A stretch of DNA of 64,000 bases from Promethearchaeota archaeon (GCA_011364925.1 RDOA01000009.1:47291-111290), one strand, 5' to 3'. Shown: positions 3,501 to 53,015, numbered from the stretch's first letter. The notes: generated by a model not told the origin, from the letters alone. A program made the numbers and translations.

Positions 3501-4853
3501 TATACAATGGAAATAACTGCTTCTAAACCAGGATATACTACAATCCAAACATCGATCACTTTTACACTTTTGGATAAATTGACAGCTTTAAGTGCAAGTG
3601 ATCCCACGCCTCAAGTTTATTACAACGATCCCATATCTTTCAATGTACATTATACAGATGTTTATGCTGAACCTGACCAAGATATCGATGGTGCTACAGT
3701 TCAATTTGTTGCAATTGGAGTTACGGGTGTTAATGGATATTTAACACCGTTAGGATCTGGTCTATACTCCTTTAATCTTGATAGTTCGGTTTTTCCGACT
3801 CACGGAGATTATATATTGCAAATTACTGCTTTTAAGCAGAATTACGAAACTCAAACGATTTATCTTCCGCTCTCAATAGAAAAGATAAATACAAGACTTA
3901 ACGATTCCGCTGCAATATATGATACTTACAATGTTTTTATAGGCGTTGAAAAGATTTTTTACTTTGAGTATACAGTTGAATCGTCAGGAATAGGATTATC
4001 AGGTGTTTCTCTAAGTGAATGCGCATGGGAAAAAGCAGTCAGCGGAGTCGTTGTAGATAGCGGTGTGGCTTCTTTAAATAGTATGGGTAATGGAATGTAT
4101 TCGTTAGATTTAAACACTGAAAACTTAGAAATCGCGACCTATACTCTCATAATAAGATTAGGGGAAAATAACTATGTCGAAAGAGATGCAATCATATTCT
4201 TGAATATAATTCCTAGAGATATTCATGTAGATGTGGATGATTTAATATCAGTAGTTTCTGGTAATAAACTGTCAATTGATATTTCGATATTTGATGCCAT
4301 TGATAATTCACCTTTACAAAATGCGGAAGTAATTTTAGAATTGAACAATGTAACTTATGGCTACTTTGATGATATTGGTGGTGGCACTTACTCAATAACT
4401 ATTCCTGATTCCGATCTTATTGATGCTTTTATCGCTAATGTATTCATACAAGCTAATATAATCGTGAATAAAGTTAACTATAGTCAAACAACCAAATCAT
4501 TTGCAATAGAAGTAAAAATGACAGAGATTTTCCCAGGCTTTCCAATGTTTTACTTTCTAATGTTGATTGGTGCCGTTGTTGCTGTGGTTGCTGCTCTTGT
4601 TATATCTCGTCAAGTGCGTAGAGCTAGGATACCCACATTTGTCAAGAAGGCAAGAGAGATGACTAAAAACATAAAAGGAAGGAAAGGCATATCAGATTCG
4701 CTTTTATATCCATCTAAAGAAGAATACATTGTTAAAAAACTAGGAGATAAGTGGGAATTGCTTGATTTGTCTTTGGTAGATATTCTAGGTGTCAGCACAA
4801 AGAAGAAAAAGAACTTGCCAGAACCAACTGAATTTGAGGGAGGTGGATTATAG
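546..4853 (+). CDS. Large membrane-anchored cell-surface protein (LamG/concanavalin-like domain, Ig-like beta-sandwich repeats, C-terminal TM helix and basic cytoplasmic tail)
   Basis: N-terminal basic + hydrophobic signal/anchor. LamG-like motifs (FTVCFWINP...GWYFVAF...FTIGA...FKGAIDEFAVYNIYLS). Many NxS/T sequons and repeated GxGxYS Ig-like units. TM FYFLMLIGAVVAVVAALVI followed by an approximately 80-aa tail. Confidence 0.85.
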   Translation: MNVRKKQKFKMTLVLLTILIPTATFSMILFNQGNYGDKNNMISDGAENPFDREGGDNYYPRTSEITHLNDKYDLSIWWNKTYRFRIGFVLEETEGIDRYQPVDVFFTFREDEHYENTERLVSFNATGNDEWSDPLPLQMWNITKYPATNFIESCTVTFLANVSANTNKTYFLYYNENNAGIEQIVYNTGFTSEKSGLTLTVTVGTDYQVVLKQGLASTQLIREGLNYHQDESLAPEKQLSDPSLKFLAHFENSVSDSSGNEPDGTINGDPQYITGIVQYGMDFDGNDFVSYANGLESIGDPLNGLSNEFTVCFWINPDDLSGGATNHQTENVVAAKASDSYNDNFELGVNNEGNIHVYLDTETRDTFADFAPAGTITTTGGWYFVAFRYQQGIAEVRIVQINNPSNPNNDIWWSMPNWNGADDLDEADGSPFTIGASEHIDQFFKGAIDEFAVYNIYLSDQEVEDFKYGSMPSSIQSITELENGPVFSSYDVKWTTTFDMHIEDTCTFYYDYELWNLERSIYFENEFNYTIDRMFALNTNYNFTVVDDHEDLLYIYDGIIQKDITSAGFVAENYTIVHNAPDASKDAIGVFIEGYELSDPAHTSISYLKGDVIYDNGDVEFIPGSLNDFDNSVGNESYQLKINFWELAGSVNKSGNLDNTGMIQYFDDTLLSLREEVDVFIYQQDSLFYSIDVNVTDIDGKLVPDATVTVWNASDYTTFWTQDTDAFGRTIFNRFENGLYVVNVSYVRYGQTLSITNPQVIELNETNVDTFGVYYLSFTNVKLTSLELKFQREDMGTIQEDVVGANITFSIDDGSGSVILGYELTNSTGVTIFRWANLTDANSGNVSLTVNWHGENYEDLACADDLNPSDIASITLPFYQYLYSVINVSTGNTYQSFLTVNESGTIDVMLGDPLSLWVNYTQQKNLDPITPIEGGTVSYNIKIGTLQINSGTLTFSETGNGVYSLYIDTSNPVEPAGANWLSSETYTMEITASKPGYTTIQTSITFTLLDKLTALSASDPTPQVYYNDPISFNVHYTDVYAEPDQDIDGATVQFVAIGVTGVNGYLTPLGSGLYSFNLDSSVFPTHGDYILQITAFKQNYETQTIYLPLSIEKINTRLNDSAAIYDTYNVFIGVEKIFYFEYTVESSGIGLSGVSLSECAWEKAVSGVVVDSGVASLNSMGNGMYSLDLNTENLEIATYTLIIRLGENNYVERDAIIFLNIIPRDIHVDVDDLISVVSGNKLSIDISIFDAIDNSPLQNAEVILELNNVTYGYFDDIGGGTYSITIPDSDLIDAFIANVFIQANIIVNKVNYSQTTKSFAIEVKMTEIFPGFPMFYFLMLIGAVVAVVAALVISRQVRRARIPTFVKKAREMTKNIKGRKGISDSLLYPSKEEYIVKKLGDKWELLDLSLVDILGVSTKKKKNLPEPTEFEGGGL

Positions 4854-6057: not shown

Positions 6058-7413
6058 GTGATAATATTGGCTGAATATGATAATTTTGATTTAGAAAATC
6101 TAGCAAAACCAAATGCACTCCCTGAAGATATCGATTATGAGACTCATATAATTGCTACTTATAGCGCAATGCTTCATCGAAAAATGGATGCTTTTTATAT
6201 GATGCAAGCGGTATGTGTTGAGCAATCAACTGGTACATTTGTCCCTGTTCCCGCGGAAACCCCTGAACAACGAAGAAAGCATGTAGCGAAAGTTATTGGG
6301 TGGTGGAGAGTCCCTGATTTTGAGTATGAGGGTGCTGAAGATTTTTTTGGTAGTCCTAAAATGTATCAATATGTAGTTCAAATTGCATATCCGTTAAACT
6401 TTAAACCCCAATTCCCAATGTTATTTACGACAATTTATGGAAATATATCAATGGGTGGACCACTTAAGATGCTTGATGTCCGATTCCCAAAAGCGTTTCT
6501 AAAAGAGTTCAAGGGTCCAAAATTCGGAGATGTTGGGGTTCGAAAGATACTAGGAGTTAAAGAAAGACCACTTTTGAATAACATGATTAAACCTTGCGTC
6601 TACTCTGATCCAAAAATAGGAGCAGATTTAGCGTATCAAGCAGCTGTTGGAGGATGTGATGTCATAAAAGATGACGAATTAATAGCTGATGTGGATTTTA
6701 ATCCAATCACTGAAAGAGTTACTGCTTTTATGGAAGCTTTGGATAGAGCTGATTCTGAGAAAGGAGAAAAAACTCTTTATACCGTTAATATCACCGACAG
6801 AGTAGAACGGATGTTTGAATTAGCAGATATTGTGCAAGAACATGGCGCCAATGCGTTAATGGTAAATCACATATCGGTAGGTTATTCTGCGTTGAGAAAA
6901 TTAGCAGAAGATCCTTCCGTAAAGGTTCCAATACTAGGACATATGGATTTTGCTGGTTCCTTATTCCAAGATCCCTTAAGCGGAGTTTCAAGTCCACTGG
7001 TACTTGGTAAATTTGGGAGATTAGCTGGTTGTGATTTCATAGTGCACCCTGCCCCTTATGGCAAAGCCCCTACTTTAGTTGATAGATTCAAAGAGACTGC
7101 ACGTCAAATGGTAATGCCGATGCGAAACGCTCCGCATATTAAAAGAACGATGCCGATGCCAAGTGGAGGAATAACTCAAAGTCTTGTCGAGAAATGTGTG
7201 AATGATTTAGGCACTAATATTATGATTGGTAGTGGCGGAGGAATTCACGCGCATCCAGATGGTCCAATAGCAGGAGCTAAAGCTTTTAGACAAGCCATCG
7301 ATGCTGTAATGAAAGGAATTCCAGCAAGAGATTATGCGAAAGATCATAAAGAGTTAGCTGTAGCATTAGGTTTGTTTGGTATTGGAAAAAAGACAGAATT
7401 TACGTCAGTCTAA
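6058..7413 (+). CDS. RuBisCO-like protein (form IV RLP)
   Basis: EQSTGT, IKP and GGCDVIKDDE motifs plus SGG/GGG phosphate loops. It has GHMDFAG instead of HxHRA and VHPAPYGK instead of HxGTxxGK, the pattern typical of form IV. Confidence 0.88.
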   Translation: MIILAEYDNFDLENLAKPNALPEDIDYETHIIATYSAMLHRKMDAFYMMQAVCVEQSTGTFVPVPAETPEQRRKHVAKVIGWWRVPDFEYEGAEDFFGSPKMYQYVVQIAYPLNFKPQFPMLFTTIYGNISMGGPLKMLDVRFPKAFLKEFKGPKFGDVGVRKILGVKERPLLNNMIKPCVYSDPKIGADLAYQAAVGGCDVIKDDELIADVDFNPITERVTAFMEALDRADSEKGEKTLYTVNITDRVERMFELADIVQEHGANALMVNHISVGYSALRKLAEDPSVKVPILGHMDFAGSLFQDPLSGVSSPLVLGKFGRLAGCDFIVHPAPYGKAPTLVDRFKETARQMVMPMRNAPHIKRTMPMPSGGITQSLVEKCVNDLGTNIMIGSGGGIHAHPDGPIAGAKAFRQAIDAVMKGIPARDYAKDHKELAVALGLFGIGKKTEFTSV

Positions 7414-7447
7414 AGATAAAACTTTTTTTTAATTATTTTTATTATTA

Positions 7448-8446
7448 TTATCCGTTTGTACCAAATCTCTTATCCAATCTTTCTTCCAAATCTATTAAGG
7501 AGTTTTCTTTAAGAATTCTAGTATTCGGGCTAAAATCTGTACTTTGTATATAGTTAGCAAGGTCATTTCCTCTTAAATCAATTAGTTCTAAAAGTGGGAT
7601 TTGTTTCAAGTATTCAATGTTTTGTGGGTCACTTAACTTATTGTTTGATAAGTCAAGATGCGTTAAACTTTTCATTTCAACCAGAGCTTTAAGGTCGTGA
7701 ATTTGGTTATTTGCAAGATTCAAATTTTGCAGATTTTGTAGATTTTTCAAACCTATTATCTTAGATACAGAATCAATGTTGTTTTTCCAGCCCCAGGGTG
7801 TCCCCTTGACTTCAAATTCGAGATAGTCGGATAAATCTAATCCATTAATCAATACATCTTCAGAATTTAGTTCAAAATATACATTTGGGAACTCTTTGAT
7901 TAATTGCCTAATTGTAAAGAAGTTGATAAGAATGTCGCCAAGTTGTTTATTTGAATAAGCATTGATTTTATTCCTCTTAATTAAAGGCTTTAGAGCTTCT
8001 TTATATTTTCTATTTTCATAACCTTTCTCAGCATTTATATATTGAAGCTTCCTAATCTTCTTTAATTGGTCTATTAATTCTGCTCTGGACTCTTTAGAGT
8101 CGATTTTCACTAAAGCTTTAACAACTGTCAATAAACACTGAAAGGATTTTTCGTGTCGAATCGTCCATTTAAATATAGCTAAACTTTTATTGATATGGTG
8201 TTCACATAAATAAATAGCAGCAGCGTTCCGAATAATTTCACTTGAATCAGAAGTTAATAAGCTCTCAAATAGATCATATAAATTCTCATTTACAAATTCC
8301 TTATTACCTAGAACTTTAATTGATTCTTCTCTTATCTTATCATTATCATAATTCTCAAGGATAGAAGCTAATAGATTAATAGCTGTGTCTTTACTTAGTT
8401 TGTTATTTATATATTCTTTATAAATAGTATTAGGACTTAATTCCAT
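7448..8446 (-). CDS. HEAT-repeat N-terminal / leucine-rich-repeat protein
   Basis: N-terminal IREESIKVLG...LLTSDSSEIIRNAAA HEAT-like helices; C-terminal LxxLxLxxN repeats. Confidence 0.85.
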   Translation of the reverse strand: MELSPNTIYKEYINNKLSKDTAINLLASILENYDNDKIREESIKVLGNKEFVNENLYDLFESLLTSDSSEIIRNAAAIYLCEHHINKSLAIFKWTIRHEKSFQCLLTVVKALVKIDSKESRAELIDQLKKIRKLQYINAEKGYENRKYKEALKPLIKRNKINAYSNKQLGDILINFFTIRQLIKEFPNVYFELNSEDVLINGLDLSDYLEFEVKGTPWGWKNNIDSVSKIIGLKNLQNLQNLNLANNQIHDLKALVEMKSLTHLDLSNNKLSDPQNIEYLKQIPLLELIDLRGNDLANYIQSTDFSPNTRILKENSLIDLEERLDKRFGTNG

Positions 8447-11203: not shown

Positions 11204-12097
11204 ATGGAATTCGCAATGATGTTTCAAGTTTTAGAAGGCGGAGTAAGCGAGCCTATCAAATGGTCAAAGGATAATCTTACGCCTGATAGTAATATAATCA
11301 TATTAGACGAAGGTTCTTCTTCGCTTTATTTGTGGTATGGGTCTAAACAAGGCTTAGTTTCGAGGAGAACTGCTCTTAGGCAAGCAGAATCGTTAAAAGG
11401 ACATGGATTTTCAGTTGGCAAGAGTATTGTTGGACGAGATATTAAAAATTTAAAAGAAATCGATCAAAGAAAAATTGGTCGTGTGCCCGAAATTGATGAA
11501 ATAAACGACGAACTCCAGACACTTTTATCCAGAAAATTTAAACCATTAGACGATTACACTGTTACCTTTGAATTGGAAGCAGAAATCCCTTCAGCTGTTA
11601 GATCTGCACCGAAGCTTGAACCTAAATTTGAGCCTAAACCTGAACCAAAATATACACCCGAACCCGTTCCCCAACCCGTTGGTATGGCGGAACCGATTAA
11701 AAAAGTAAAACCCCCCGAACCAAAAATGCTACGTGCCTCTGAATATGACACTGAAATCGATATTCCAACATCTAGCACACCCATCGAAAAAAATATTGTA
11801 AAACCTCCCCCAGTTCCTTTGGAACAAAAACCTCTCTTTTCAGAAGCTAAAGAAGAGCTTGATGTTCAAGCAAAGATTGGATTTGTGTTAATTGGAGTAC
11901 TGGACCACTATGACGATATATGGGTTTCGAAGAAAGAAGATGGGGGGTATTCTGTTGAACATATGGATGGAAAAGTATGTGAATTCTCAATTTTCGAAGG
12001 AAAAATTAAGTTCACTTCAGATTCTTTTTCAGGAATTTCTACCAAAATTAAATCGGAAATCCAAAAGAAATTTGTAGAGCTTTCAAAATTAATCTAA
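11204..12097 (+). CDS. Gelsolin-domain protein with Pro-rich linker and C-terminal domain (Asgard gelsolin-like)
   Basis: NLTPDSNIIILDEGSSSLYLWYGSKQGLVSRRTALRQAESL matches the gelsolin repeat. The ATG at 11204 is preceded by GAGGAG and is preferred over 11078. Confidence 0.75.
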   Translation: MEFAMMFQVLEGGVSEPIKWSKDNLTPDSNIIILDEGSSSLYLWYGSKQGLVSRRTALRQAESLKGHGFSVGKSIVGRDIKNLKEIDQRKIGRVPEIDEINDELQTLLSRKFKPLDDYTVTFELEAEIPSAVRSAPKLEPKFEPKPEPKYTPEPVPQPVGMAEPIKKVKPPEPKMLRASEYDTEIDIPTSSTPIEKNIVKPPPVPLEQKPLFSEAKEELDVQAKIGFVLIGVLDHYDDIWVSKKEDGGYSVEHMDGKVCEFSIFEGKIKFTSDSFSGISTKIKSEIQKKFVELSKLI

Positions 12098-12213: not shown

Positions 12214-13971
12214 ATGAAATTTAAAAATTTAGCAGTGCTTTTTTCAGACCTAGAATCTACATCAAAGAGACTCGAAATGATAGATTTCTTGTCTAAATTC
12301 TTTGAAGAAGTAAAATCAAGTAATGAATTTCAGGATTTAGATAAAATTATATACTTACTGCAAGGTGAGTTAGTTTCAAACATTAAACAATTCCCTAAAA
12401 TTGGGATTGCTGAGAAGATGATTATTGAAGCTTTGTCTCTCCACTCTGGTATAGATAAAAAGAAAATAAAAGAAATTCTGATAAAGAAGGGGGATATCGG
12501 AGCTACTGCAGAATTAATATTAGCCAAAAAGAAAAAGCAAAAATCTCTATTCGATTTCGAAGAGAAACCAGAGGAATCTCTCCCTTCTCTAGAAATTTCA
12601 GAATTGTATTCAGCTTTACAAAAAATCGCTTTGAGTGAAGGAGTAGGATCACAAGATATAAAATTAGGGATACTAAGGGGTTTAATGAGAAAGTGCTCGC
12701 CATTAGAAAATAAGTATTTACTCCGAATAATTACCTCAACATTAAGAGTCGGAGTGTCAACTTTGACGATAATTGATGGTTTAGCTATAGGATTTACTGG
12801 TGTTAAAGAGAACAGGAACTTTATCGAAATGGCATATAATTTGCATCCTGATTTAGGGGATATTACAAAAATTCTAGCAAAAAAAGGGATTGGTGAAGTT
12901 CAAAAAATTGGAATAACTTATGGAATACCTATCAGAATGATGTTGGCTTCAAGAGTTCCTTATGGAGAAATAATCGAGAAACTTGGAAGTCCTTTTATTG
13001 CAGAGTATAAATTAGATGGAGAAAGACTTCAAATTCACAAACAAGGCCAAGATATAAAATTATTTTCTCGAAGATTGCTTGAAATATCTGAACAATACCC
13101 TGATGTATGTCAGACGATAAATGAAAATATCCAAGTCGATAATGTCATTATCGAGGGAGAAGTTGTTGCCATGGATTCCGTTTACGAAAAAATGCTACCA
13201 TTTCAAGTACTCAGTAAAAGACGGCGAAAATATGATGTAGAAGGTGTCATGAAGGAAGTCCCCGTTTGCCTTTTCCTATTTGATTTGTTAAAGTATAAAG
13301 ACGAATCTTTTATTGATAAACCATTCCTTGTACGAAGGAAAAAATTGGAGGAAATTGTATTAGAAAGAGATGAATTACGTATAGTTAAATCAGTCTTAAT
13401 CAATAATACTGATGAACTCTTAGAGTTTTTTAACATTGCTAGAAATGAAGGAAATGAGGGTGTTATGGCTAAATCTATCAAAGATAATTCTGTTTATCAA
13501 GCAGGAAATAGAGGTTTTCTGTGGATAAAATTAAAAGGATTAGAGGGAGGAAAGCTAAAAGATACGGTTGATGTTGTATTAATTGGAGCTTTTTACGGAA
13601 AAGGTCGTAGAACTGGTGTGTATGGAACTTACATCGGAGCGGTATATGACCCCATAAATGGAATCTTTATTGCTTTTACTAGATTTTTTTCAGGATTGAC
13701 AGATGAACTTTCAGAGTCCCTAACCAAACAAATGGAGACATATAAAACAGAAAAAAAACCTAAAAATGTTATTTGTGAAGATATTCCAGATGTTTGGCTG
13801 GAACCAGAAATCGTGGTGGAAATTTTTGGAGATGAGATAACAGTTAGTGAGAAATTTCCCGCTTTAGGTTATTCTATGAGATTCCCTGTCTTCCAAAGAG
13901 TTCGTCCTGAAAAAGGTCCCGTAGATATAACAACAGTCGATGAAATTAAAAGCCTGTATGAATCTCAATAA
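12214..13971 (+). CDS. lig: ATP-dependent DNA ligase
   Basis: EYKLDGER (motif I), EGEVV, FDLL, EGVMAK, WIKLK, RFPVFQRVR. Confidence 0.97.
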   Translation: MKFKNLAVLFSDLESTSKRLEMIDFLSKFFEEVKSSNEFQDLDKIIYLLQGELVSNIKQFPKIGIAEKMIIEALSLHSGIDKKKIKEILIKKGDIGATAELILAKKKKQKSLFDFEEKPEESLPSLEISELYSALQKIALSEGVGSQDIKLGILRGLMRKCSPLENKYLLRIITSTLRVGVSTLTIIDGLAIGFTGVKENRNFIEMAYNLHPDLGDITKILAKKGIGEVQKIGITYGIPIRMMLASRVPYGEIIEKLGSPFIAEYKLDGERLQIHKQGQDIKLFSRRLLEISEQYPDVCQTINENIQVDNVIIEGEVVAMDSVYEKMLPFQVLSKRRRKYDVEGVMKEVPVCLFLFDLLKYKDESFIDKPFLVRRKKLEEIVLERDELRIVKSVLINNTDELLEFFNIARNEGNEGVMAKSIKDNSVYQAGNRGFLWIKLKGLEGGKLKDTVDVVLIGAFYGKGRRTGVYGTYIGAVYDPINGIFIAFTRFFSGLTDELSESLTKQMETYKTEKKPKNVICEDIPDVWLEPEIVVEIFGDEITVSEKFPALGYSMRFPVFQRVRPEKGPVDITTVDEIKSLYESQ

Positions 13972-20849: not shown

Positions 20850-23036
20850 TTATTTTCCCTCCATATGAAATATTCTGTGCTTATCAAGTTTAACTCGATA
20901 ATTTGGTGGAACCACTAAAGTAGTAGCTGGAGCCTCAATAACAGCCGGACCATTTACGATATTTCCACTATTTAATAGTCTCATTTCCCAGATAGAAGAC
21001 TCGTGCCATTTTCCGTCCCAATATGTTTCTCTTGTCCCTTTAGAGGATATGTCGTTAGGCCTTTCACTGCTTAACTCATACTCTGGTAATATAGGTTTAG
21101 GAACTGGTACTACTCCCGTACCGACAGCCTTAGTAACATGATAACCTAATTCAGGACTTTTGGTCCCTCGTCGAAAAATTTTTTCAAACAAATCGTCGTA
21201 TCGCTTAAGGATTATATCTACATCAGGCGAATCAAAACGATCTAGCTCTGCAGAATACTCTGCATTCAGTACATCGGTATGCGATTCAACTTCTAAATCT
21301 TTCAACATCCCAAAATATTGTAACTTAAGGGACGGTTTAAACTTCATTTCTTCAGGGTTCCTCCCTTCCTTTTCAAATTCTTCTTTAATTCTTGTTTTCA
21401 AGTCATTCCATGTTGAGCTTAGCATTGAGGCAACAAATCCACTCATAGTTCTGTCAGGATCGATAACTAAATCTACAGAGATCTCGTGTCTATAAGAGTG
21501 ATCGGCACATGCGCACCCATAAGCTGAAAACGCAGCAGCCCACTCCGGTATCATAATATTTTGAAAAGATAACCCTTTTGAATATCCTGCTACATGAAGA
21601 GGTCCACCACCTCCAAAGCTTAAAAGCGTATAATTTTCTGGTCTAAATCCAAGGCCCTGAATCATCCCGTTTAGGTGGTTTTTCATGTTAATCTCAATTA
21701 AATCCAAAGCTCCTCTTGCGGTTTCATATGGATCAGTTTTGAAAGGTGTAGCTAATTGATCTTCGATGTAACTAAGTGCTCTTTTTTTGTTTAAAGGAAC
21801 TTTCCCACCCAAAAAGTAGTCTGGATTAAGGTAGCCAAGAATCAAGCTGCAGTCAGTCATAGTCACTTGTTCTACTCCTGATTGTTCGTTACACACTCCT
21901 ATAAGATATCCTGCGCTCTCAGGACCGAATTCTAGTCTACCAGAAACATCATTGTATCTAACATACATCCCTGTACCTGCTCCAATTGAATCCAACGCTA
22001 TCATGGGAATATTTAGGATAAATCCACCAAGAGAGCTTTCCCATTTAGTCGGAACATAGTGTTCCATAGTTAGCCCAACATCAAAACTCGTACCTCCTAC
22101 ATCTGAAGATACCAGGTTTTTTATACCATATTTTTCAGCAATGAATTTACTACCAATCATACCCCCTATTGGTCCAGAGACCATGGTCGGAATAAGAGAT
22201 TTAGAATAGGGAGACATTGTTCCTCCATAAGAGGTCAAAATCCTAAGAGGTGCTGGCACACCCTTCTCTTTTAATTTCTCAGCTATAGCTTTTAATTGCT
22301 TCCTTGAGGGTTCTGCGGCATATTGTTCAATAAGAAGAGCGTTTAATCGTGGTGTTTCACCTCTTACCGGATTATGATCGGAAGACAGGATGACTGGTAT
22401 TTCTTTCCCTTTCTCTTTCATAATTTGCTTTGCTATTCTTTCTACCTCCATTTCATGCATTGAATTCATATATGAACAAAGTAGACATACACAGATACAA
22501 TCTACATTCATTTCAAGTAATTCGTCTACTGCTTTTTCTACATCTCTTTCATAAAGAGGAATCAGTTCGTCACCCCAAAAATTAATTCTTCCTCTCACTC
22601 CTTTAAAGTTATTTCTTGGAATAAGAGTCGGAGGATGTTCGTGTTCCCTAACATGAAGTCTTCCAGCATAATCAAGTCCTATCCAACATTGTAAAGCCCT
22701 TCCTAAACGGTGGAGATCCTCAAATCCTGCATTTACAATAACGCCAATGTTGTCGTTTCCTTCTCGTTCCAAAAGTCTATTAAGCATGGCTGTGCCTGAA
22801 TAGACTAAAGCCTCCACACCGACACCAGTATCTTCTAACAATTTACCCCATTGGTTTAATGAATCTTCGATGGAATTTAAAATTCCAATGGATTCTTCGT
22901 TTCCGGTGGTTAATGCTTTTCCTACAGAAAAACTACCATTCTCATCTATAATAAAGGAATCTGTCATTGTTCCACCAGTATCTAACGCAATGACCTTTAA
23001 TAAATGTGCTTTATCTTCATTTACTGATTCTGTCAA
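20850..23036 (-). CDS. acxA: Acetone carboxylase beta subunit (hydantoinase A family)
   Basis: DTGGTMTD, SGPIGG, DVGGTSFD, SIGAGTG, FGGGGPLH, GPAVIE; first gene of the acxABC operon. Confidence 0.9.
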   Translation of the reverse strand: MTESVNEDKAHLLKVIALDTGGTMTDSFIIDENGSFSVGKALTTGNEESIGILNSIEDSLNQWGKLLEDTGVGVEALVYSGTAMLNRLLEREGNDNIGVIVNAGFEDLHRLGRALQCWIGLDYAGRLHVREHEHPPTLIPRNNFKGVRGRINFWGDELIPLYERDVEKAVDELLEMNVDCICVCLLCSYMNSMHEMEVERIAKQIMKEKGKEIPVILSSDHNPVRGETPRLNALLIEQYAAEPSRKQLKAIAEKLKEKGVPAPLRILTSYGGTMSPYSKSLIPTMVSGPIGGMIGSKFIAEKYGIKNLVSSDVGGTSFDVGLTMEHYVPTKWESSLGGFILNIPMIALDSIGAGTGMYVRYNDVSGRLEFGPESAGYLIGVCNEQSGVEQVTMTDCSLILGYLNPDYFLGGKVPLNKKRALSYIEDQLATPFKTDPYETARGALDLIEINMKNHLNGMIQGLGFRPENYTLLSFGGGGPLHVAGYSKGLSFQNIMIPEWAAAFSAYGCACADHSYRHEISVDLVIDPDRTMSGFVASMLSSTWNDLKTRIKEEFEKEGRNPEEMKFKPSLKLQYFGMLKDLEVESHTDVLNAEYSAELDRFDSPDVDIILKRYDDLFEKIFRRGTKSPELGYHVTKAVGTGVVPVPKPILPEYELSSERPNDISSKGTRETYWDGKWHESSIWEMRLLNSGNIVNGPAVIEAPATTLVVPPNYRVKLDKHRIFHMEGK

Positions 23037-26031: not shown

Positions 26032-27339
26032 TTAAAGTTTGATGGAGAATGGGAATTCTTTAGCTTCTTCTATTTTGTTTTGGTCAGGATCGACAAATTT
26101 TATGTATACTTTAATTATGTAATCTCCTGCTTCTAATGGTTTAAGGTTTATTTCCCATTTCAAATCTTCATTAGTTCTTAATGAATATATCTGTTTTTTA
26201 GTGGTACCTCTCATAACTTTTAAATTCTCGGGGAATTCGACATCAATATCTACATCTAACGCTTCCCCTTCGCTTTGGTTTTCAATTAGAATCTCCAAAG
26301 GAAATGTTTGATCAATAAGAGGAGGTCTTAAATTTTTAATAGAAGCTAATAGTGTAGCAGGAGGGGAAACTAACTGAGGTACTACTGATTGAGTTTCATA
26401 TGTAAAGATGAGGTTTTTGTCTAAATCGCAAGTAAACAAAATAGGTCCAATGAACGGATTTTCAATTTGGAAATGAGGTTTAATTATAAATTCTAAACTG
26501 GAAACATTTCCCACATCAAGAGTTAAAGGAACTTGTGGTTTTTTACTCGTAGTCAAGTTATCTGAAAGGTTAACTGTTATTTTATTTATATTAAACTCGC
26601 TATATTCAAACTGATAATAAGGATCATTTAGGATCGTTGATAAGCCTGTGATATCAAAATTGAGAGTAAGGTTTATTAGTTCATTAGTGTTATATTGGTC
26701 TTTATCTAGTTTAAATGTTGAGTTAGTTAACAGTTGAACATTTATTAGGAGTAGCACATATTTTAATAGTTTTACTTCAGCGTCCCTAAATTTGTAATGG
26801 GTCATATTCTCTTTAATTTTATCAATGTATTTGATTTGTTTATCCCGAAGAGAAAGGGTAATTTCAGAAACTAGCTGTATTAATGAGCTTTCCTTGAAAA
26901 AATCTTTATCGACCTTTCTTTGAATCTTCTTTATATTCTCTAAACCTTCCTCAGGATTACCCTTAAGAAATGAACATAAATAGGATAATACTGAAAAGAG
27001 AATGCTATTATAACTTCGTTCTCCTTCATTTTTTAGCTTCGGAACATACTCTAACACTTCTTTATAAACTTCGTTAGCTGCTAAAAATTCATCTGCATAA
27101 ATACAAGCTTCCCCAGATTGCCTAAATAGCTCAATAGTAGTATCATATCTCTCCAATTCCATAAACATTTTAGCAGCATTGATAAAACTGTTCCTAGCCT
27201 CTTCAAATTCCTCTAATTTCAGCAGAATATTTCCAGCTAAGTGATAATTTTTACCAGCTTTTTTAAATTGTCTTGCTTTGAACAGTTGGTCAGCTTTTAG
27301 TATTTGCTTTTCAGCTTGTTCTCTTTGGTCTTTTCCCAT
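26032..27339 (-). CDS. Hypothetical protein: TPR/SNAP-like helical N-terminus plus C-terminal Ig-like domains
   Basis: Ala-rich TPR-like helices (AGKNYHLAGNILLKLEEFEEARNSFINAA). C-terminal LEILIENQSEGEALDVDI...L.PLEAGDY beta-sandwich. Confidence 0.65.
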   Translation of the reverse strand: MGKDQREQAEKQILKADQLFKARQFKKAGKNYHLAGNILLKLEEFEEARNSFINAAKMFMELERYDTTIELFRQSGEACIYADEFLAANEVYKEVLEYVPKLKNEGERSYNSILFSVLSYLCSFLKGNPEEGLENIKKIQRKVDKDFFKESSLIQLVSEITLSLRDKQIKYIDKIKENMTHYKFRDAEVKLLKYVLLLINVQLLTNSTFKLDKDQYNTNELINLTLNFDITGLSTILNDPYYQFEYSEFNINKITVNLSDNLTTSKKPQVPLTLDVGNVSSLEFIIKPHFQIENPFIGPILFTCDLDKNLIFTYETQSVVPQLVSPPATLLASIKNLRPPLIDQTFPLEILIENQSEGEALDVDIDVEFPENLKVMRGTTKKQIYSLRTNEDLKWEINLKPLEAGDYIIKVYIKFVDPDQNKIEEAKEFPFSIKL

Positions 27340-27448
27340 TTAAAATCCCAATAATTTTAATTTAAATTTATGAATTAAATTACACATTAAAAATTACGCC
27401 TAATTAATGAGAAAAAAGAAAAAAAAAGACAAATTTAATTTATTTTGT

Positions 27449-28105
27449 TTATAAAGCTAAAACCATTAGTACAAATGCTATTAAAATGAGTATTCCTCCA
27501 AATCCAGCTAATCCAATAAAACCTACCGCAAATGGCGATATCCAAGTAAAGATAACAAAACCTATTAATAGGACTACCCACCATGAGTAATTAATTACCT
27601 TCAAATCTACGAAATCAAATAAAACGATAATCAAAAGTATTAAAAGAATTAATCCAATAACGCCATTAACGATAAGAAGAGCATTTCCAGAGAGGAAAAG
27701 TAAAAAGCACTCATAAACCGAAAAGCCAATACCGATTAGTAGTACTATTTTTGAAGCTTTATATGGTTTCTTTTGCATAAATAATTCAACAAATGCCGCT
27801 ATTAACAACAATATTCCAGCAAAATAACCACCACCAAAGAAGTAGGCAAATATAATCAATATAGCTCCAAAGATAAGGATTAGCCACCATTGATATGGAA
27901 TTTTTAAAGGCCCAAAACTAATCAATTCTAATGTAAGAAAGATTAAGAACGCAATGACTAAGCAAAGTATCCCCCAGAGTATATTAAGACCGAAACCACC
28001 TAGTGGCGCATAGAAATATGTTATAGCCATAAAAATTGTATAAAGCATCCCTATAAACACAAGCAATTTTGGAGCTGAAATTTTTTCTGTTGACAATTCA
28101 TTCAT
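27449..28105 (-). CDS. Integral membrane protein with internal two-fold duplication
   Basis: About 8 hydrophobic segments; halves repeat (APKLLVFIG/ASKIVLLIG; IPYQWWLILIFG/INYSWWVVLLIG). Confidence 0.8.
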   Translation of the reverse strand: MNELSTEKISAPKLLVFIGMLYTIFMAITYFYAPLGGFGLNILWGILCLVIAFLIFLTLELISFGPLKIPYQWWLILIFGAILIIFAYFFGGGYFAGILLLIAAFVELFMQKKPYKASKIVLLIGIGFSVYECFLLFLSGNALLIVNGVIGLILLILLIIVLFDFVDLKVINYSWWVVLLIGFVIFTWISPFAVGFIGLAGFGGILILIAFVLMVLAL

Positions 28106-28270
28106 TTTTTTTCACTTTTTTTAAATTCTTCTAAATTTTAATTTAGAATTAGAAATTAAATAGGATCGTGAATTTAAAAAGATTTACAGATTACTTAAGA
28201 TATTATTAATAGGAGTTCAAAACTCTTATTAAAAAATAAAATTTTAAAAATTAGAGATTAAAATTTTTTT

Positions 28271-28337
28271 CCGAAACCATCACATAATGGGTTGTCTTCT
28301 CGCGACTATTATTTCTTCGCGAAAATCATTCTTTCGG
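28271..28337 (-). promoter_or_regulatory. SECIS element (eukaryote-like AUGA...GA type)
   Basis: mRNA reads CCGAAA-GA-AUGA-UUUUCGCGA-AGAAAUAAUAG-UCGCGAGAA-GA-CAAC-[CCAUUA-UG-UGAUGG]-UUUCGG. This gives an AUGA/GA core, a 9-bp upper stem, an AAA-containing loop and a CCGAAA/UUUCGG lower stem, directly 3' of two UGA-containing genes. Confidence 0.88.
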
Positions 28338-28814
28338 TTTAATTTTTTTTGCTTTTTCATCAGAATCTTTTTTCTCATTTATTAAGGATTCTTTAATGGG
28401 ATTGGTGCCTAGATTTTCTATTAATTCAGTAACCCTGGTAACTTCTTCTTGAAATCTCTGGCCCTCAGCAGCACTACAGTTAAACATTTGGATTCTTTCA
28501 GGAGCTACTCCGGCAGTTTTTAAAATTTCTCGAGTGTATTCAACATTTTTTGCTGCTACTAAATTACCAGTTTCATAATCGCATTCTCCTTCGTATCATC
28601 CTGCAACGACTACTCCATCTGCGCCCTTTCCAATCGCCCTCATCATTAAACTGGGGGTAACCCTCCCAGTACAGTTAATTCGCACAGGTCTAATAGACGC
28701 AGGATATTGAGCGCGTATTGTTCCAGCCATATCCCCAGCACCATAACCTCATTTCCAACACATAAAAGCTATTATCTTTACCTGGTCTTTTGTTTTTGCT
28801 ACTATAATTTTCAC
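28326..28814 (-). CDS. mvhD: Selenoprotein VhuD/MvhD (methyl-viologen-reducing hydrogenase delta subunit, 2Fe-2S), 2 Sec; not in ORF track
   Basis: Translates KIIAFMCWK-U-GYGAGDMAG...RINCTGRV...GADGVVVAG-U-YEGECDYETGN...PERIQMFNCSAAEG. TGA at 28749-28751 and 28596-28598 occupy conserved MvhD Cys positions. Start is GTG 28814 or a nearby ATA; stop is TGA 28326-28328. Confidence 0.93.
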
Positions 28815-28818
28815 CTCT

Positions 28819-30795
28819 CTATATCTCTTCCAATATCGCGTCTATCTGTTTTTCGTATTGAGGTTCACGATAATATCTTAAAGTAATTGCTTCTGAGGGG
28901 CAATTAGCCAAACAAGCACCACAACCTCTACAAAGGATATCGTTAACTTCTGCGCCATCCGATTCGACAGTAATCGCACCATATGGGCAGTTGAGCTGAC
29001 ACAATCCACACTTTGCGCATCTTTCGTTATCAACAGTTGCACGAATTAGGAGAATCCTATATTTATCCTTTGTCATTAACCTTGCCAAAGACGACGCAGC
29101 GGCTCTTCCTTGCGCTATTGACTCTGAAATTGATTTTGGTCCTTGAGATACACCAGCTAGCACAATTCCAGGGATTTTTGTATCGATTGGATTCAATCGC
29201 GAATGATATTCCTTGAAAAATCCATCATGACTTTTCTCTAGTTTCAGAATATTGGACAAACCCTCAATCCCTTTAGCGGGTACCATAGCGCTAGATAAAA
29301 CTACCAAATCAAATTCAAATTCTTTTAATCCCGTAGTACCTACGGTGTTTTGTAATCTTACTTTAAGGTTATGGGTTTCGGGGTCTTCATAAATTCTGGA
29401 TACATTAGTTCGTATGTATTTTATTCCCTCTTTTCTAGATGCTGTAAAATATTCCTCGTAATCTTTCCCCGCAGCTCTTATATCCATGTAGGCTACGGAA
29501 ACATCAATATCGGGAGAGTGTTGTTTAATGAGCTTTGTATTCTTTACTGAGATCATACAACACACTCCAGCACTACAGTAAGTTTGCCTGGTTAAATCTC
29601 TTGATCCTACACATTGAATAAATAGAACGCTTTTAGGCTCTTTTCCATCAGAAGGTCGCTTTAGGTGTCCTATTGTAGGTCCATTAGGTGCTAATATTCT
29701 CTCCAGTTTTAACTGTGTTATAACATTAGGGTAAACATTGTAACCTAAATAACCTGTCTCTGGTTCGTATTCATCCCATCCTGTTGCAACTACTATAGAA
29801 CCAACCTCAATTTCTAAGATTTCATCTTTTTGGTCAAAATCTATCGCGTCTACTTCGCAAGCTTTTTCACATAATCCACATTTGATACACTTGGTCATGT
29901 CGATTTGAGCTATCATTGGAACTGCTTGTGCAAATGAAGCATATATAGCTTTTCTGGGATTCAAACCTTCGTTAAATTCATTGTATCCATAAGCTGGGCA
30001 GACTTCCCAACACGCTCCACAGCCATTGCAGTCATTGTTAACATATCTTGCTTTTTTTCTGATTTTAACCTTAAAATTCCCAACAAATCCAGTTACTTCT
30101 TCAACTTCACTATAGGTATGCAGATTCAATCCAGGAGTTCTAGCAGTTTGGAGCATAACCGGACCGAGAATTCATATACTGCAATCGTCTGTTGGGAATG
30201 TACGATCTAACATAGCCATCTTTCCGCCAATCGTGGGTTTTTTCTCTACTAAATGTACCTCAAAACCTTCTTCTGCTAAATCTATTCCTGCAGATAATCC
30301 TGCGACTCCCCCACCAATAATTAGAGCCTTTTTTGTTATATCTACTTCTTTGATTAAGATTTTCTCTAAAGTAGCAGCTCGAGCTACTCCGGCACGGATA
30401 GCGTCTTCTGCCGTTTTTTGTGCTCCAGGTTTATCATTTCTGTGGACAAAACTCGAATGCTCGCGGATATTCACGAATTCTAAGTATGACGGATCTAAAT
30501 TCATCGACTCTAGCACGCTTTTAAATACTGGTTCGTGAGTTTTTGGAGTGCATGATGCCATTAGTAATCGATTTGCATTAAATTCGATCATCTTTTCTTT
30601 TATAAACTCAGCACCAGACTGTGTTCATAGAGAAATATAATCTATCGCTTCTACAACATTAGGCAGTTTTTTGGCATATTCTGATAATACTTTTGTATCT
30701 ATGATTTCAGCGATGTTAAGTCCTCACTGGCAAATAGTAACTAAGATTCTGATGTCATCACTTTCAGTCATAACTTCCTCTTTAGTTTCTACCAT
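28819..30795 (-). CDS. hdrA: Selenoprotein heterodisulfide reductase subunit A-like (HdrA), 3 Sec; ORF track splits it into fragments
   Basis: One reading frame from ATG 30795 (alternative 30771) to TAG 28819. In-frame TGA at 30724-30726 (CQ-U-GLNI), 30625-30627 (ISL-U-TQSG) and 30172-30174 (TDDCSI-U-ILGP), all aligning with conserved HdrA cysteines. Also GGGVAG FAD motif, QCVGSRD and ferredoxin motifs. Confidence 0.95.
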
Positions 30796-31001
30796 TGCAT
30801 GTCCTTCCTTTCTAATTTTTTAAGTTCCTCCTAAATATTCAAATCTAATTATTACAGTTCTAAATGATTATTTCTAATTTAAAATAACTGATTAAAAAAA
30901 TAACTTTAAAACAATCTTTTTTTATATAAGTTTTATAATTAATTGAATTAAAAATATTCGTTAATCGTTTATAATCGAATTATCACGGTTATTGATATAA
31001 A

Positions 31002-31427
31002 ATGATATTAACTTTTTTCCAGATGGGAAATTTTAAAATAGACGAATATCTCCCTATCATAATGATTGCTGCATTTGCTGTAGGAGATATATTATTGCTT
31101 AAGCTTGGGTTAGTAATAACTAAAGCGCAGAAAAGAAAACGCATGAAATGGGTTGCGGGAAGTTTTGCAATTCAATTTGGAGTAGTTTTTGCTATAAGTT
31201 CTCCTTTGTTTTTACTTGGCATTATAGGTGCTTTCAAAGGGGGGCCTCCTCCTGTAGGGTTAGCTTCTATCGTTTTCATTTCAGCTTTTATTGATCTTAA
31301 CATAATTAACATTTTACATCAGATTGGATTAAAACGCTCACTAGTAGTGGTGATATTTACATTTGCTCCAATATTTCTGATGATGGTAGTTTTTGGGATG
31401 TATGTATCAAGCTTTTTTCATTATTAA
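31002..31427 (+). CDS. Small integral membrane protein
   Basis: Four hydrophobic segments; no recognised motif. Confidence 0.7.
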   Translation: MILTFFQMGNFKIDEYLPIIMIAAFAVGDILLLKLGLVITKAQKRKRMKWVAGSFAIQFGVVFAISSPLFLLGIIGAFKGGPPPVGLASIVFISAFIDLNIINILHQIGLKRSLVVVIFTFAPIFLMMVVFGMYVSSFFHY

Positions 31428-32353
31428 GTATTGTCTAAGTTAATCACTTTATTTATTTCCTTATTCATTTCAGAGATTTTGTCTCTAGCAGCTTCACCGA
31501 ATTTGTTCGCAGAGTATTTGCCGTTTTTAGAATAAGCATACATTATTCCTCTAGAGGAATTAACAATTGCTCCCAAGCCATCCTCATAAAATCCATTTTT
31601 TGTCTCTTTTGCCGTAGCACCCTGAGCTCCAAAACCAGGTATTAGAATATAAGAATTCTTGACTATGTTTCTTATAGACTTTAGTTCATCTGGGAAAGTG
31701 GCGCCTACAACGACACCTAAATTGTGAAAATTTGATACTTGCGTTAACTCTTCCCCCCATTTAGATACAAGTCTTGCCATTTTTATGTAATTTCTTTCTA
31801 AAGTAGCATTTTCCACGCTAACTTCGATCTTAGAATCTGGTATTCCTAATATTTCAGTACTAAAAAGGTTTTGAAAGTCATTACTGCTAGGATTTGATGT
31901 TTTAACTAAAACGAATAAACCTTTTTCTTTAAATTCTAAAAATGGTTTTACTCCATCAATTCCAAGATATGCGTTTATAGTACACGCATCAGCGTTTAAA
32001 ACTTTAAAAATAGAATAAGCATATGCCTCTGAAGTCGTCCCGATATCGTTTCTTTTGCAGTCTAAAATAACTAATAAATCCTTTTTGTGAGCATATTTTA
32101 TAGTTTCTTTTAAAGCGTCGAAAGCTTCATATTTCTCGTAAAATGCTATTTGAGGTTTTATAACAGAGATTATATCATATGTATTATCAATAAGAGTTTT
32201 ATTAAATTCAAGAATAATTTCATTGGGGTCATCATATTCGTCGATTAAAAATTGTGGAATTTCCCCTTCTTTATCTAATCTGGGATCCAATCCCATGGAT
32301 ACAACGCTATGTTTATCCTTAATTGATTGAATTAAATCTCTAATAAAATTCAT
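31424..32353 (-). CDS. pyrF: Orotidine-5'-phosphate decarboxylase
   Basis: GLDP, KPQIAFYE, DCKRNDIGTT, KTSNP, VVGAT, LIPGFGAQG, NSSR. Confidence 0.96.
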   Translation of the reverse strand: MNFIRDLIQSIKDKHSVVSMGLDPRLDKEGEIPQFLIDEYDDPNEIILEFNKTLIDNTYDIISVIKPQIAFYEKYEAFDALKETIKYAHKKDLLVILDCKRNDIGTTSEAYAYSIFKVLNADACTINAYLGIDGVKPFLEFKEKGLFVLVKTSNPSSNDFQNLFSTEILGIPDSKIEVSVENATLERNYIKMARLVSKWGEELTQVSNFHNLGVVVGATFPDELKSIRNIVKNSYILIPGFGAQGATAKETKNGFYEDGLGAIVNSSRGIMYAYSKNGKYSANKFGEAARDKISEMNKEINKVINLDNT

Positions 32354-32515: not shown

Positions 32516-33946
32516 CTATTTTTCCCGATAAAAAGTTTCTTTCCCTCGAACCATTGAGATTAAGGCTCCAAATATACAAATTATTGCGGATACTATAAAA
32601 GCAGTATGCATTCCCATTTCAAAACTAGCTTTTATTGAGGAGGTGATTACAATGGTCTGATGAGATAATACGGGATTCAACACATAAGGGGGAATAAATA
32701 TTGCTAAGATAGCACTAAGCAAAGCTATGCTAATTGATTGCCCTATCACCCGCATTGTAGACAGTGTCCCAGAAGCAATTCCTAAATCTCTTTTTTCGAC
32801 AGATTTCATAATAGCAGACTGATTAGGTGAAGAAAATAGTCCAATCCCAAAACCAATAACGGATTGGCTTATAATAATATAAATTATGTTAAGATAAGTA
32901 ATTATAAACACGAGACTGAAAAGCCCTACTGCCATAATACTCAAACCTACAGTACATGGAATTCTTGTTCCTATTTTATCAGACAATCTCCCACTAAATA
33001 AGGTAGAAACTGCCATTGTTAATGTGGTTGGAACTAAGAAAAATGCTGTTATTGCTGGAAATATTCCTAATATAGATTGCAGATAAATTGATAACAAAAA
33101 ACTTACCCCCATTGTAGCAATATAATTTATTAAAGCAGCAACATTTGCAGCAGCAAAGATCCTGTTTTTTTTAAATAGATTTAAGTTTAGCATAGGATAT
33201 TTTACCTTTGTCTCTATAATAATGTAAGAAATAAAACTTATTATTGAAATTATTATAAAACTCAGAATAATCGGAGACATCCACCCAAAAGTATTTGCCA
33301 GACTCAAACTTAAGAGAAATAAAGCTAAAGCAATACCGAAAGCTATGGTTCCTAAAATATCAAATGATTCGTCTTTTAATTTTAATTCTGATTGTTTTAA
33401 TTTTAAAAATCCGATGATAATTAAAATTACACCAATGGGAAGATTGATTGTAAATATGGTTCTCCATGTACCAGTAACTTGTATTAAAAGACCTCCTAAT
33501 ACCGGTCCTAATACCAATCCAAGATAAATAGATGCAACATATATTCCTAATGCTTTGCCCGTTTCTTGATGGGGAAACACTTCAGTTATCATTGAAGCGG
33601 AAATCGCAGCTATAAATGCACTGCCCGTTCCTTGAATCGCACGAAATATGATAACCATCTCTCCAGATGTAGATAACATACATAAGAAACTTGAAAATGT
33701 AAATAGGATAATACCTAATAAAAAAAAGTTTTTTCTTCCACGAATATCTGATAATCTCCCAAATGCTATTAAAGTAACAGCCATAACCAAAAGATAAACA
33801 ATCGGTATCCATTGAACAATTTCAAAAGAAGTTTTTAAATCTTTAGAAAGCGCGGGAATTGCAATATTTAAAATACTCCCGTCTAAAGAAGTCATAAAAG
33901 AACCTACTGTAGTGACTCCTAATACGGTCCATTTGTATTTTACCAT
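32516..33946 (-). CDS. MFS transporter, DHA2/EmrB-like (14 TM)
   Basis: LDGSILNIAIP, GRLSDIRGRK, RAIQGTG, LGPVLGG, WRTIFTINLPIG. Confidence 0.92.
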   Translation of the reverse strand: MVKYKWTVLGVTTVGSFMTSLDGSILNIAIPALSKDLKTSFEIVQWIPIVYLLVMAVTLIAFGRLSDIRGRKNFFLLGIILFTFSSFLCMLSTSGEMVIIFRAIQGTGSAFIAAISASMITEVFPHQETGKALGIYVASIYLGLVLGPVLGGLLIQVTGTWRTIFTINLPIGVILIIIGFLKLKQSELKLKDESFDILGTIAFGIALALFLLSLSLANTFGWMSPIILSFIIISIISFISYIIIETKVKYPMLNLNLFKKNRIFAAANVAALINYIATMGVSFLLSIYLQSILGIFPAITAFFLVPTTLTMAVSTLFSGRLSDKIGTRIPCTVGLSIMAVGLFSLVFIITYLNIIYIIISQSVIGFGIGLFSSPNQSAIMKSVEKRDLGIASGTLSTMRVIGQSISIALLSAILAIFIPPYVLNPVLSHQTIVITSSIKASFEMGMHTAFIVSAIICIFGALISMVRGKETFYREK

Positions 33947-52282: not shown

Positions 52283-53015
52283 TTAAAGGATCAACTCCTT
52301 CCATTAGTTTAATAATAAAATCTTCAAACTTAATTACGGGTTTTTTTAATTGGTTATCATCTTTAACACGCTTAAAAGCGGTATAACAAAATGGACAAGC
52401 AGTTAATAAAATCTTACCTCGATTTAATTGATCAAAAATCAACTTTGAATTGTAATCACTATTTTCCTTAAAAATTGAATATACACCTCCTCCAGCACCA
52501 CAACAAATACTATTAGTTTTATTATTTTCCATTTCTATGAGTTCAATGTTATCGATTGAGTTAATGATTTGTCTGGGTTCTTCAATTATTGGTACTGCAG
52601 CATTTCTTAAGTGACAAGCATCGTGATAACTTACTTTTAATCTTTTTCCAGAATATTGTAGGTTTAGTTTCTTAAGATTCTCTGGTTTCGCTAAGAATTG
52701 AAGCAAATGTTGGACATTAATTTTAAAATCGTTTCCTAAGAATAGAGTGTAATATTTTGTTAAATAATTATAGCATCCGGCACAAATAGTCACGATCTCA
52801 GATATTTCATGAATTTTGAACCAATTATTAACGAATTCAACATGATCTTTTAATTCTATATCGTTTCCAATATGATACGCCAAAGCACCGCAGCAAGGAG
52901 CATCGTCTAAAACTACATAGTCTGGATCTATGGATTTGATAAGTTTTATAGCGTTAGCGCAGGTATCTTTGTATTTTGTATTTGACAAACAACCTAAGAA
53001 GATTAATTTTTTCAT
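52275..53015 (-). CDS. CCG-domain Fe-S protein (LutA/GlpC/HdrB-like)
   Basis: FLGC, PCCG, CAGC, YHDACHL, CCGAGGG, ACPFC; overlaps the LUD gene by 8 bp. Confidence 0.88.
   Translation of the reverse strand: MKKLIFLGCLSNTKYKDTCANAIKLIKSIDPDYVVLDDAPCCGALAYHIGNDIELKDHVEFVNNWFKIHEISEIVTICAGCYNYLTKYYTLFLGNDFKINVQHLLQFLAKPENLKKLNLQYSGKRLKVSYHDACHLRNAAVPIIEEPRQIINSIDNIELIEMENNKTNSICCGAGGGVYSIFKENSDYNSKLIFDQLNRGKILLTACPFCYTAFKRVKDDNQLKKPVIKFEDFIIKLMEGVDPLIE

Follow-up and report, generated by a model that had tools for sequence, protein, structure and literature searches.

The 64,000-nucleotide stretch of a Promethearchaeota archaeon genome analysed here (GCA_011364925.1, RDOA01000009.1:47291-111290; hereafter the window, whose numbering is used unless another contig is named) carries on its minus strand two adjoining genes, hdrA and vhuD, with five in-frame TGA codons between them. 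Our reading, to which we give a probability of roughly 0.85, is that they form an intact pair of selenoprotein genes, likely transcribed into one mRNA, in which a single selenocysteine insertion sequence (SECIS) of the lokiSECIS type serves all five UGAs. Both are intact selenoprotein genes, as seen from the alignment of their selenocysteine (Sec) codons with Cys or Sec in homologues, from one conserved kink-turn-type SECIS and from the Sec machinery of the genome. The arrangement itself is already known, having been published for Lokiarchaeota in 2016 (PMC4989117) and generalised in 2024 (PMC11227280); the window adds one more clean and complete example and is not a discovery.

When TGA is read as U (Sec), the hdrA frame (28819-30795, minus strand) runs from an ATG at 30795 to position 28822, a length of 658 amino acids free of in-frame TAA or TAG, and is closed by a TAG at 28821-28819. 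Its product is an HdrA-type flavoprotein (heterodisulfide reductase subunit A) whose match to solved HdrA chains runs the full length (5odc_A, E 6.7e-199, residues 14-655; 9sfi_A, E 8e-198; 8rvu_a, E 2.4e-189) and in which Pfam recognises Fer4 and FAD/NAD-binding domains. The homology takes in the N-terminal Cys, FAD, inserted ferredoxin and C-terminal ferredoxin domains, and the flavin-adjacent D-C-x-x-C/U motif is present as D-D-C-S-I-U at residues 203-208. The second gene, vhuD (also mvhD; 28326-28814, minus strand, from a GTG at 28814), encodes the delta subunit of the F420-non-reducing hydrogenase in 162 amino acids followed by a TGA stop (28328-28326). VhuD scores 144.7 bits against PF02662 (FlpD; gathering cut-off 22.3), has 9sfi_K as its best PDB match (E 9.8e-36) and retains both Methanococcus VhuD Sec/Cys positions, as U22 and U73.

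The initial annotation had placed three in-frame UGAs in hdrA and two in vhuD, at positions occupied by Cys in homologues, and the reading of TGA as U bears out every coordinate. Codon 24 of hdrA (30724-30726), in a C-Q-U motif of the N-terminal domain, aligns with Cys13 of 5odc_A; codon 57 (30625-30627) aligns with Cys46 of the same chain; and codon 208 (30172-30174), the canonical D-C-x-x-U site, aligns with Cys197 of 5odc_A, Cys205 of 8rvu_a and X197 of 9sfi_A. In vhuD, codon 22 (28749-28751) corresponds to an X of 9sfi_K and to Cys16 of 9sw2_D, and codon 73 (28596-28598) to an X of 9sfi_K and a Cys of 9sw2_D. All five thus align with Cys in PDB homologues, none of the TGAs falling off a Cys column, and U208 of HdrA and both VhuD residues align with the ‘X’ (Sec) of the Sec-containing chains 9sfi_A and 9sfi_K. 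Judged by these alignments, U208 and the two VhuD sites are the classical methanogen Sec sites, and U24 and U57 are extra. The earlier remark that three Sec residues exceed the single D-C-x-x-U site of methanogen HdrA was to the point, with the qualification that multi-Sec HdrA had already been described (PMC4989117).

The SECIS core lies at the 3’ end of vhuD (28295-28329, minus strand) and emerged from both a pattern scan and folding. It consists of an AUGA (28329-28326), a perfect 9-bp helix (28325-28317 paired with 28305-28297), an 11-nt A-rich apical loop with the sequence AGAAAUAAUAG, and a GA (28296-28295), and the UGA of the AUGA doubles as the vhuD stop codon. The Sec codons lie 2397, 2298 and 1845 nt (hdrA) and 422 and 269 nt (vhuD) upstream of the AUGA, in agreement with the prior description of a sole SECIS-like hairpin at the vhuD end up to about 2.4 kb from the codons it serves. 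The strict pattern has 13 matches in the two strands of the 3.9-Mb genome (7.8 Mb), seven of them with an A-rich loop; the vhuD element is among these seven, and its stem alone is perfect. By chance, some 0.005 matches to the strict pattern would be expected in the 2.9-kb region. The element belongs to the lokiSECIS, or Asgard eSECIS-like type I, by its AUGA/9-bp/11-nt/GA geometry, which is the published one (PMC4989117), by its site just past the vhuD stop with none inside hdrA, and by compensatory changes. Its assignment as a eukaryote-like SECIS was accordingly upheld by this geometry, and the organism is of the Loki type, all 80 related loci originating in metagenome-assembled genomes of Promethearchaeota.

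Around the core, an 84-nt fold adds an outer helix, CCGAAA/UUUCGG (28337-28332 paired with 28276-28271), and a 3’ side hairpin (28290-28286 paired with 28281-28277), giving an extended element at 28271-28337 on the minus strand. The fold has a minimum free energy of -18.2 kcal/mol (z -3.4), and none of 200 shuffled sequences was equally stable. The three-helix fold recurs in most orthologues, in which the element is nearly invariant, so that the covariation evidence for it is thin: compensatory variants of the outer helix CCGA/UCGG occur in only about three loci (GCGA/UCGC, CCGU/ACGG and UCGA/UCGA), and scripted scoring of this helix is ambiguous, ACCG having the side hairpin as an alternative pairing partner. 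The 9-bp stem and its loop have been described in PMC4989117 and PMC11227280, the latter of which also describes the lower stem and internal loop. As a separate observation, we noticed no mention of the side hairpin in the descriptions given by these two papers. Rfam, including RF00031, returned no match at gathering score in the whole window and none credible at E values up to 10 in the region; the element functions like a eukaryotic SECIS but is no member of RF00031 by covariance model.

To place the pair among its relatives we compared 80 orthologous loci, obtained from a search of one genome per species, all of them from metagenome-assembled genomes of Promethearchaeota (Asgard) and with HdrA identities of 73-93%. 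U208 is present in all 81 sequences (the 80 loci and the window), U24 in 78 and U57 in 30, with Cys in the remainder. In every one of the 80 loci hdrA ends in TAA or TAG and is directly followed by vhuD, which itself ends in TGA in 16. That hdrA never and vhuD sometimes ends in UGA is consistent with a signal of long upstream reach that does not act below a minimal distance, an argument made in PMC4989117. A strict scan located the SECIS from -1 to +16 nt of the vhuD stop in 44 loci; in 24 that were missed even by a looser scan the same SECIS can be recognised by eye, with loops such as AUAAA; and in the most tolerant scan an element was located in 76 of the 80 as well as in the window. Compensatory changes affect all nine pairs of the helix (45 sequences; 85 cells), a result reached by none of 500 shuffles.

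The spacing of the two genes bears on whether they share a transcript. The gap of 4 bp given in the initial annotation holds if the GTG at 28814 is the vhuD start; by orthology the gap is 13 nt. Directly 3’ of the hdrA stop lies a Shine-Dalgarno-like AGAGGTG (28812-28818, minus strand), kept in the orthologues compared, and the GTG at 28814-28812 within it is the sole canonical in-frame start of vhuD; the ATG or GTG with which the relatives begin, 13 nt past the hdrA stop, is ATA here (within 28803-28818). Because the only canonical start sits inside the conserved ribosome-binding motif, translation of vhuD may begin at a near-cognate codon. Runs of T past the SECIS (28231-28263, minus strand) are a possible archaeal terminator, and the AT-rich intergenic region 5’ of hdrA (30796-31001), beyond which the next gene is divergent, appears to be the sole non-coding room for a promoter. 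Taken together, hdrA and vhuD are most likely carried on one bicistronic mRNA. Were they instead transcribed separately, the SECIS would have to act on the hdrA mRNA in trans, or the UGAs be read independently of any SECIS; an internal promoter in the 3’ end of hdrA is conceivable from the sequence, with no direct support, and we consider this account improbable given that the 4-13-nt gap is filled by the conserved ribosome-binding motif, that the tandem order is invariant (80 of 80 loci) and that hdrA is never UGA-ended, as expected if a downstream SECIS reaches into it.

A further alternative is that hdrA has a signal of its own, independent of the vhuD element, in the form of an internal or 5’ untranslated region (UTR) SECIS or of a hairpin after each UGA. 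A relaxed scan of 28150-31010 did find one other SECIS-shaped hairpin, within hdrA at 29507 (UUGA, a 12-bp stem with one mismatch, GA), and this is what speaks for such a signal. We rejected it as a SECIS: across the 80 orthologues the UUGA is mostly CAGA or CGGA and only 5-10 of the 12 pairs can form. A bacterial-type hairpin after each UGA was likewise rejected, the following 70 nt being no more stable than shuffled sequences (z -1.15 to +0.38). For the methanogen-type SECIS (defined by a long lower helix, by GAA bulged out opposite A and by a G+C helix of 3 bp) there was no convincing match in 28150-31010, the sole candidate being a weak AT-only match at 30079 whose conservation in orthologues was not checked. 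The absence of a credible Rfam match and the RNAz search of Lokiarchaeota in PMC4989117, which found no further SECIS, point the same way. The internal search proposed beforehand thus turned up nothing convincing, and a separate hdrA signal is highly unlikely.

The genome (3.9 Mb, 112 contigs, 33% G+C) encodes a complete Sec-decoding machinery: tRNA-Sec, EFsec, SepSecS, PSTK and SPS. Contig C64 holds EFsec (1956-3392, minus strand; best PDB match 4ac9_A, E 2.8e-88), tRNA-Sec (6532-6679, plus strand) and SepSecS (6707-8083; PF05889, 377 bits) within about 6 kb, and small open reading frames (ORFs) lie between and beyond the three genes. PSTK is encoded on C20 (best PDB match 3adb_A, E 2e-34; under the TIGR03574 cut-off), and C94 carries two SPS genes with one in-frame TGA each. 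The tRNA-Sec gene has two introns, one of 28 nt in the anticodon loop and one of 30 nt in the T loop. The spliced tRNA folds into a 9/4 cloverleaf whose anticodon is UCA and whose discriminator is G, its variable arm being long; a same-genus tRNA-Sec (62 bits on RF01852) can be aligned with it over the full length, with compensatory changes in the acceptor stem. It was found only by blastn with this same-genus tRNA-Sec; searches of the genome by ARAGORN, by RF01852 above threshold, by a structure scan and by a G+C-island scan all failed to detect it, owing to the two introns. Two other candidates were rejected, one at 17347 on C64, which is a tRNA-Ser(GGA) with an intron, and one of 132 nt on C70, which is an ordinary 7/5 tRNA. 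The Loki tRNA-Sec of 2016 was reported with a T-loop intron only, and in several same-genus genomes the gene is uninterrupted. Lack of the machinery had been named in advance as what would speak against Sec decoding, and the opposite was found.

Standard gene callers, under translation table 11, split both hdrA and vhuD into fragments at the TGAs, as would be expected of pseudogenes broken by stops or of a genome-wide reassignment of UGA to another residue; with five of five TGAs on Cys columns and retained as TGA in relatives whose proteins are 73-93% identical, with complete Sec machinery, and with TGA otherwise a normal stop that closes 207 of 1529 long ORFs (13.5%), such explanations have a negligible probability.

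In the mechanism that we favour, hdrA and vhuD would be transcribed as one mRNA with the lokiSECIS in its 3’ end, and this element would direct EFsec with Sec-tRNA(Sec) to the five UGAs, three in hdrA and two in vhuD, 269-2397 nt away. The UGA within the SECIS core would be too near for recoding and would hence act as the vhuD stop, and hdrA, in which a terminal UGA would itself be decoded as Sec, would need UAA or UAG as its stop. The pair would yield an HdrA flavoprotein together with its [2Fe-2S] partner of the MvhD type; Se would take the place of S in cysteines around the flavin and around the N-terminal [4Fe-4S] cluster, the mobile ‘shuttle’, and the two proteins would probably work with HdrBC and a VhuAGU hydrogenase, whose genes lie on another contig. 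Several points weigh against this reading of the locus. We infer that the two genes are co-transcribed and that Sec is inserted at the distal codons of hdrA, and the action of one SECIS across two cistrons is likewise a prediction from the sequence. No SECIS-binding protein is known in archaea, which leaves the action of the signal across the cistron boundary unexplained. In addition, vhuD lacks a canonical start at the orthologous position (ATA for ATG), and the covariation set was picked by a pattern that requires pairing, which inflates the percentage of paired positions but not the compensatory changes.

The bicistronic, shared-SECIS organization closely follows published tandems. Mariotti et al. 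(2016; PMC4989117) reported multi-Sec HdrA with up to four Sec at five positions, VhuD with two Sec, and invariant hdrA-vhuD tandems in which a single lokiSECIS past vhuD serves as many as six UGAs across some 2 kb, the hdrA stop always being UAA or UAG and vhuD being free to stop at UGA. The window shares with these Lokiarchaeota tandems the gene order, the very short gap, a multi-Sec HdrA that includes the canonical site, and the geometry and place of the SECIS; its loop starts with AGAAA instead of AAAAA, and nothing essential differs. Here the AUGA core contains the vhuD stop, a situation that the same paper described for VhuU.1. Huang, Xiao and Zhang (2024; PMC11227280) extended the survey to hundreds of Asgard genomes, in which hdrA and frhD/vhuD are always same-strand neighbours sharing one eSECIS-like structure. 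The element in the window resembles their type I in its AUGA_GA core, AGAAA being among the Asgard loop variants, and the genome is one more bearer of such hdrA-frhD clusters.

The resemblance to better-known Sec systems is more partial. The Methanococcales proteins HdrA(Sec197) and VhuD (two Sec; 9sfi, PMC13518236) are orthologous, with U208 equivalent to Sec197 and both VhuD Sec positions identical, whereas methanogen HdrA has one Sec and the protein described here two further ones at its N terminus, and methanogens use a GAA/A-type archaeal SECIS per gene in place of the kink-turn-type AUGA/GA element. With the eukaryotic SECIS (RF00031) the element shares the AUGA...GA core, the A-rich apical loop, the place in the 3’ UTR and a kilobase reach; it differs in that its helix is shorter, two cistrons are served, no SBP2 is known and Rfam gives no match.

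The Sec sites map onto residues that recent cryo-EM places between the [2Fe-2S]/shuttle cluster and the bifurcating flavin. In a crystal structure, the N-terminal [4Fe-4S] cluster of HdrA is bound by N-terminal Cys residues and by Cys197 of the other protomer (PMC9012536); according to cryo-EM, the HdrA pair Cys202/Cys205 and MvhD Cys16 lie between the flavin and the [2Fe-2S] or shuttle cluster (PMC13580544); and a Cys-Sec197 bridge has been reported (PMC13518236). U208 matches Cys205/Sec197, and U22 of VhuD matches Cys16. HdrA's N-terminal domain contains only four Cys or Sec residues (C22, U24, U57 and C82), and in a weak BLASTP match of this domain to VhuD (E 0.06) all four positions are aligned. 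It is conceivable, and we hold it tentatively at rather less than even odds, that the three HdrA Sec residues and U22 of VhuD all sit where the mobile arm hands over electrons and that the HA3 shuttle cluster is partly Se-ligated: if, as published descriptions have it, three N-terminal Cys bind HA3, then with only four Cys/Sec present at least one of U24 and U57 would be a Se ligand, together with U208’. If so, the shuttle cluster of Loki-type bifurcation would be tuned differently from that of any methanogen enzyme studied.

The surroundings of the pair are also conserved. More than 70 of the 80 loci share the order pyrF, a 141-amino-acid membrane protein, hdrA, vhuD and a TPR/SNAP-like protein of 435 amino acids (26032-32353 in the window), in which the membrane protein is divergent from hdrA. 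The neighbours in the window comprise pyrF, small membrane proteins, the TPR/SNAP-like protein, an M24 peptidase, a nucleoside phosphorylase-like protein and hydantoinase subunits; for the two small membrane proteins, at 27449-28105 and at 31002-31427, Pfam gave no match. The initial annotation had pointed out that no hdrBC or hydrogenase genes are adjacent, and indeed none was found within about 10 kb on either side; this ‘orphan’ state is conserved, because the neighbour order is kept in more than 70 loci. For the electron-bifurcating partner, which it called unknown, there is a probable candidate. Contig C67 (17649-21961) has a cluster made up of vhuG, a vhuA without its C-terminal end, a small vhuU, hdrC and hdrB, which contains neither hdrA nor vhuD and holds the only [NiFe] hydrogenase large-subunit gene found in the genome. 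Its vhuU encodes Sec in the motif D-C-U-L-S-C and has a UGA stop within an AUGA...AA SECIS. From this gene content, the C67 vhuGAU-hdrCB cluster is the probable partner of the HdrA-VhuD pairs. In practical terms, the locus confirms that gene callers break hdrA and vhuD, and, being well delimited and accompanied by Sec machinery and a probable VhuAGU-HdrBC partner, it lends itself to studies of decoding from a shared SECIS.

The genome contains 14 MvhD-type genes, ten of which are of the Cys type; the other four have two TGAs, and each of these lies behind a multi-Sec hdrA and ahead of a SECIS of its own. In one such paralogous pair, on the 5.5-kb contig C5 (about 1086-3700, minus strand), the portion of hdrA examined contains five U, one in the inserted ferredoxin domain and the others at the counterparts of residues 24, 57, 82 and 208; with the two in its vhuD, seven UGAs precede one lokiSECIS, compared with the maximum of six in PMC4989117. 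The fourth Sec-type pair (C112:15040-17489, minus strand), about 30 kb before the start of the window, has three plus two U, including one that falls in the inserted ferredoxin domain, and a SECIS with a 10-nt loop, which the strict 9/11 scan hence missed. Within the window, 22 kb from hdrA, a 260-amino-acid protein with two CCG domains of the HdrB/HdrD type is encoded at 52371-53003 (minus strand; C112:99661-100293), and across the genome 48 matches to CCG domains fall in some two dozen genes. Together with the ten Cys-type MvhD genes, these CCG-domain genes point to many Hdr-like modules.

Six of the strict-pattern matches were inspected, several of which follow UGA-containing ORFs that resemble known selenoprotein families. 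Other lokiSECIS matches lie behind an ORF of about 150 amino acids with adjacent U-U (C32, about 33100-33603, plus strand), a small membrane protein with the motif G-G-G-U-P-N-I-C (C41, about 11710-11950, minus strand), a peroxiredoxin-like protein with W-U-S-H-C (C39, about 13300-13843, plus strand) and an ORF with an in-frame UGA (C24, about 22000-22143, plus strand).

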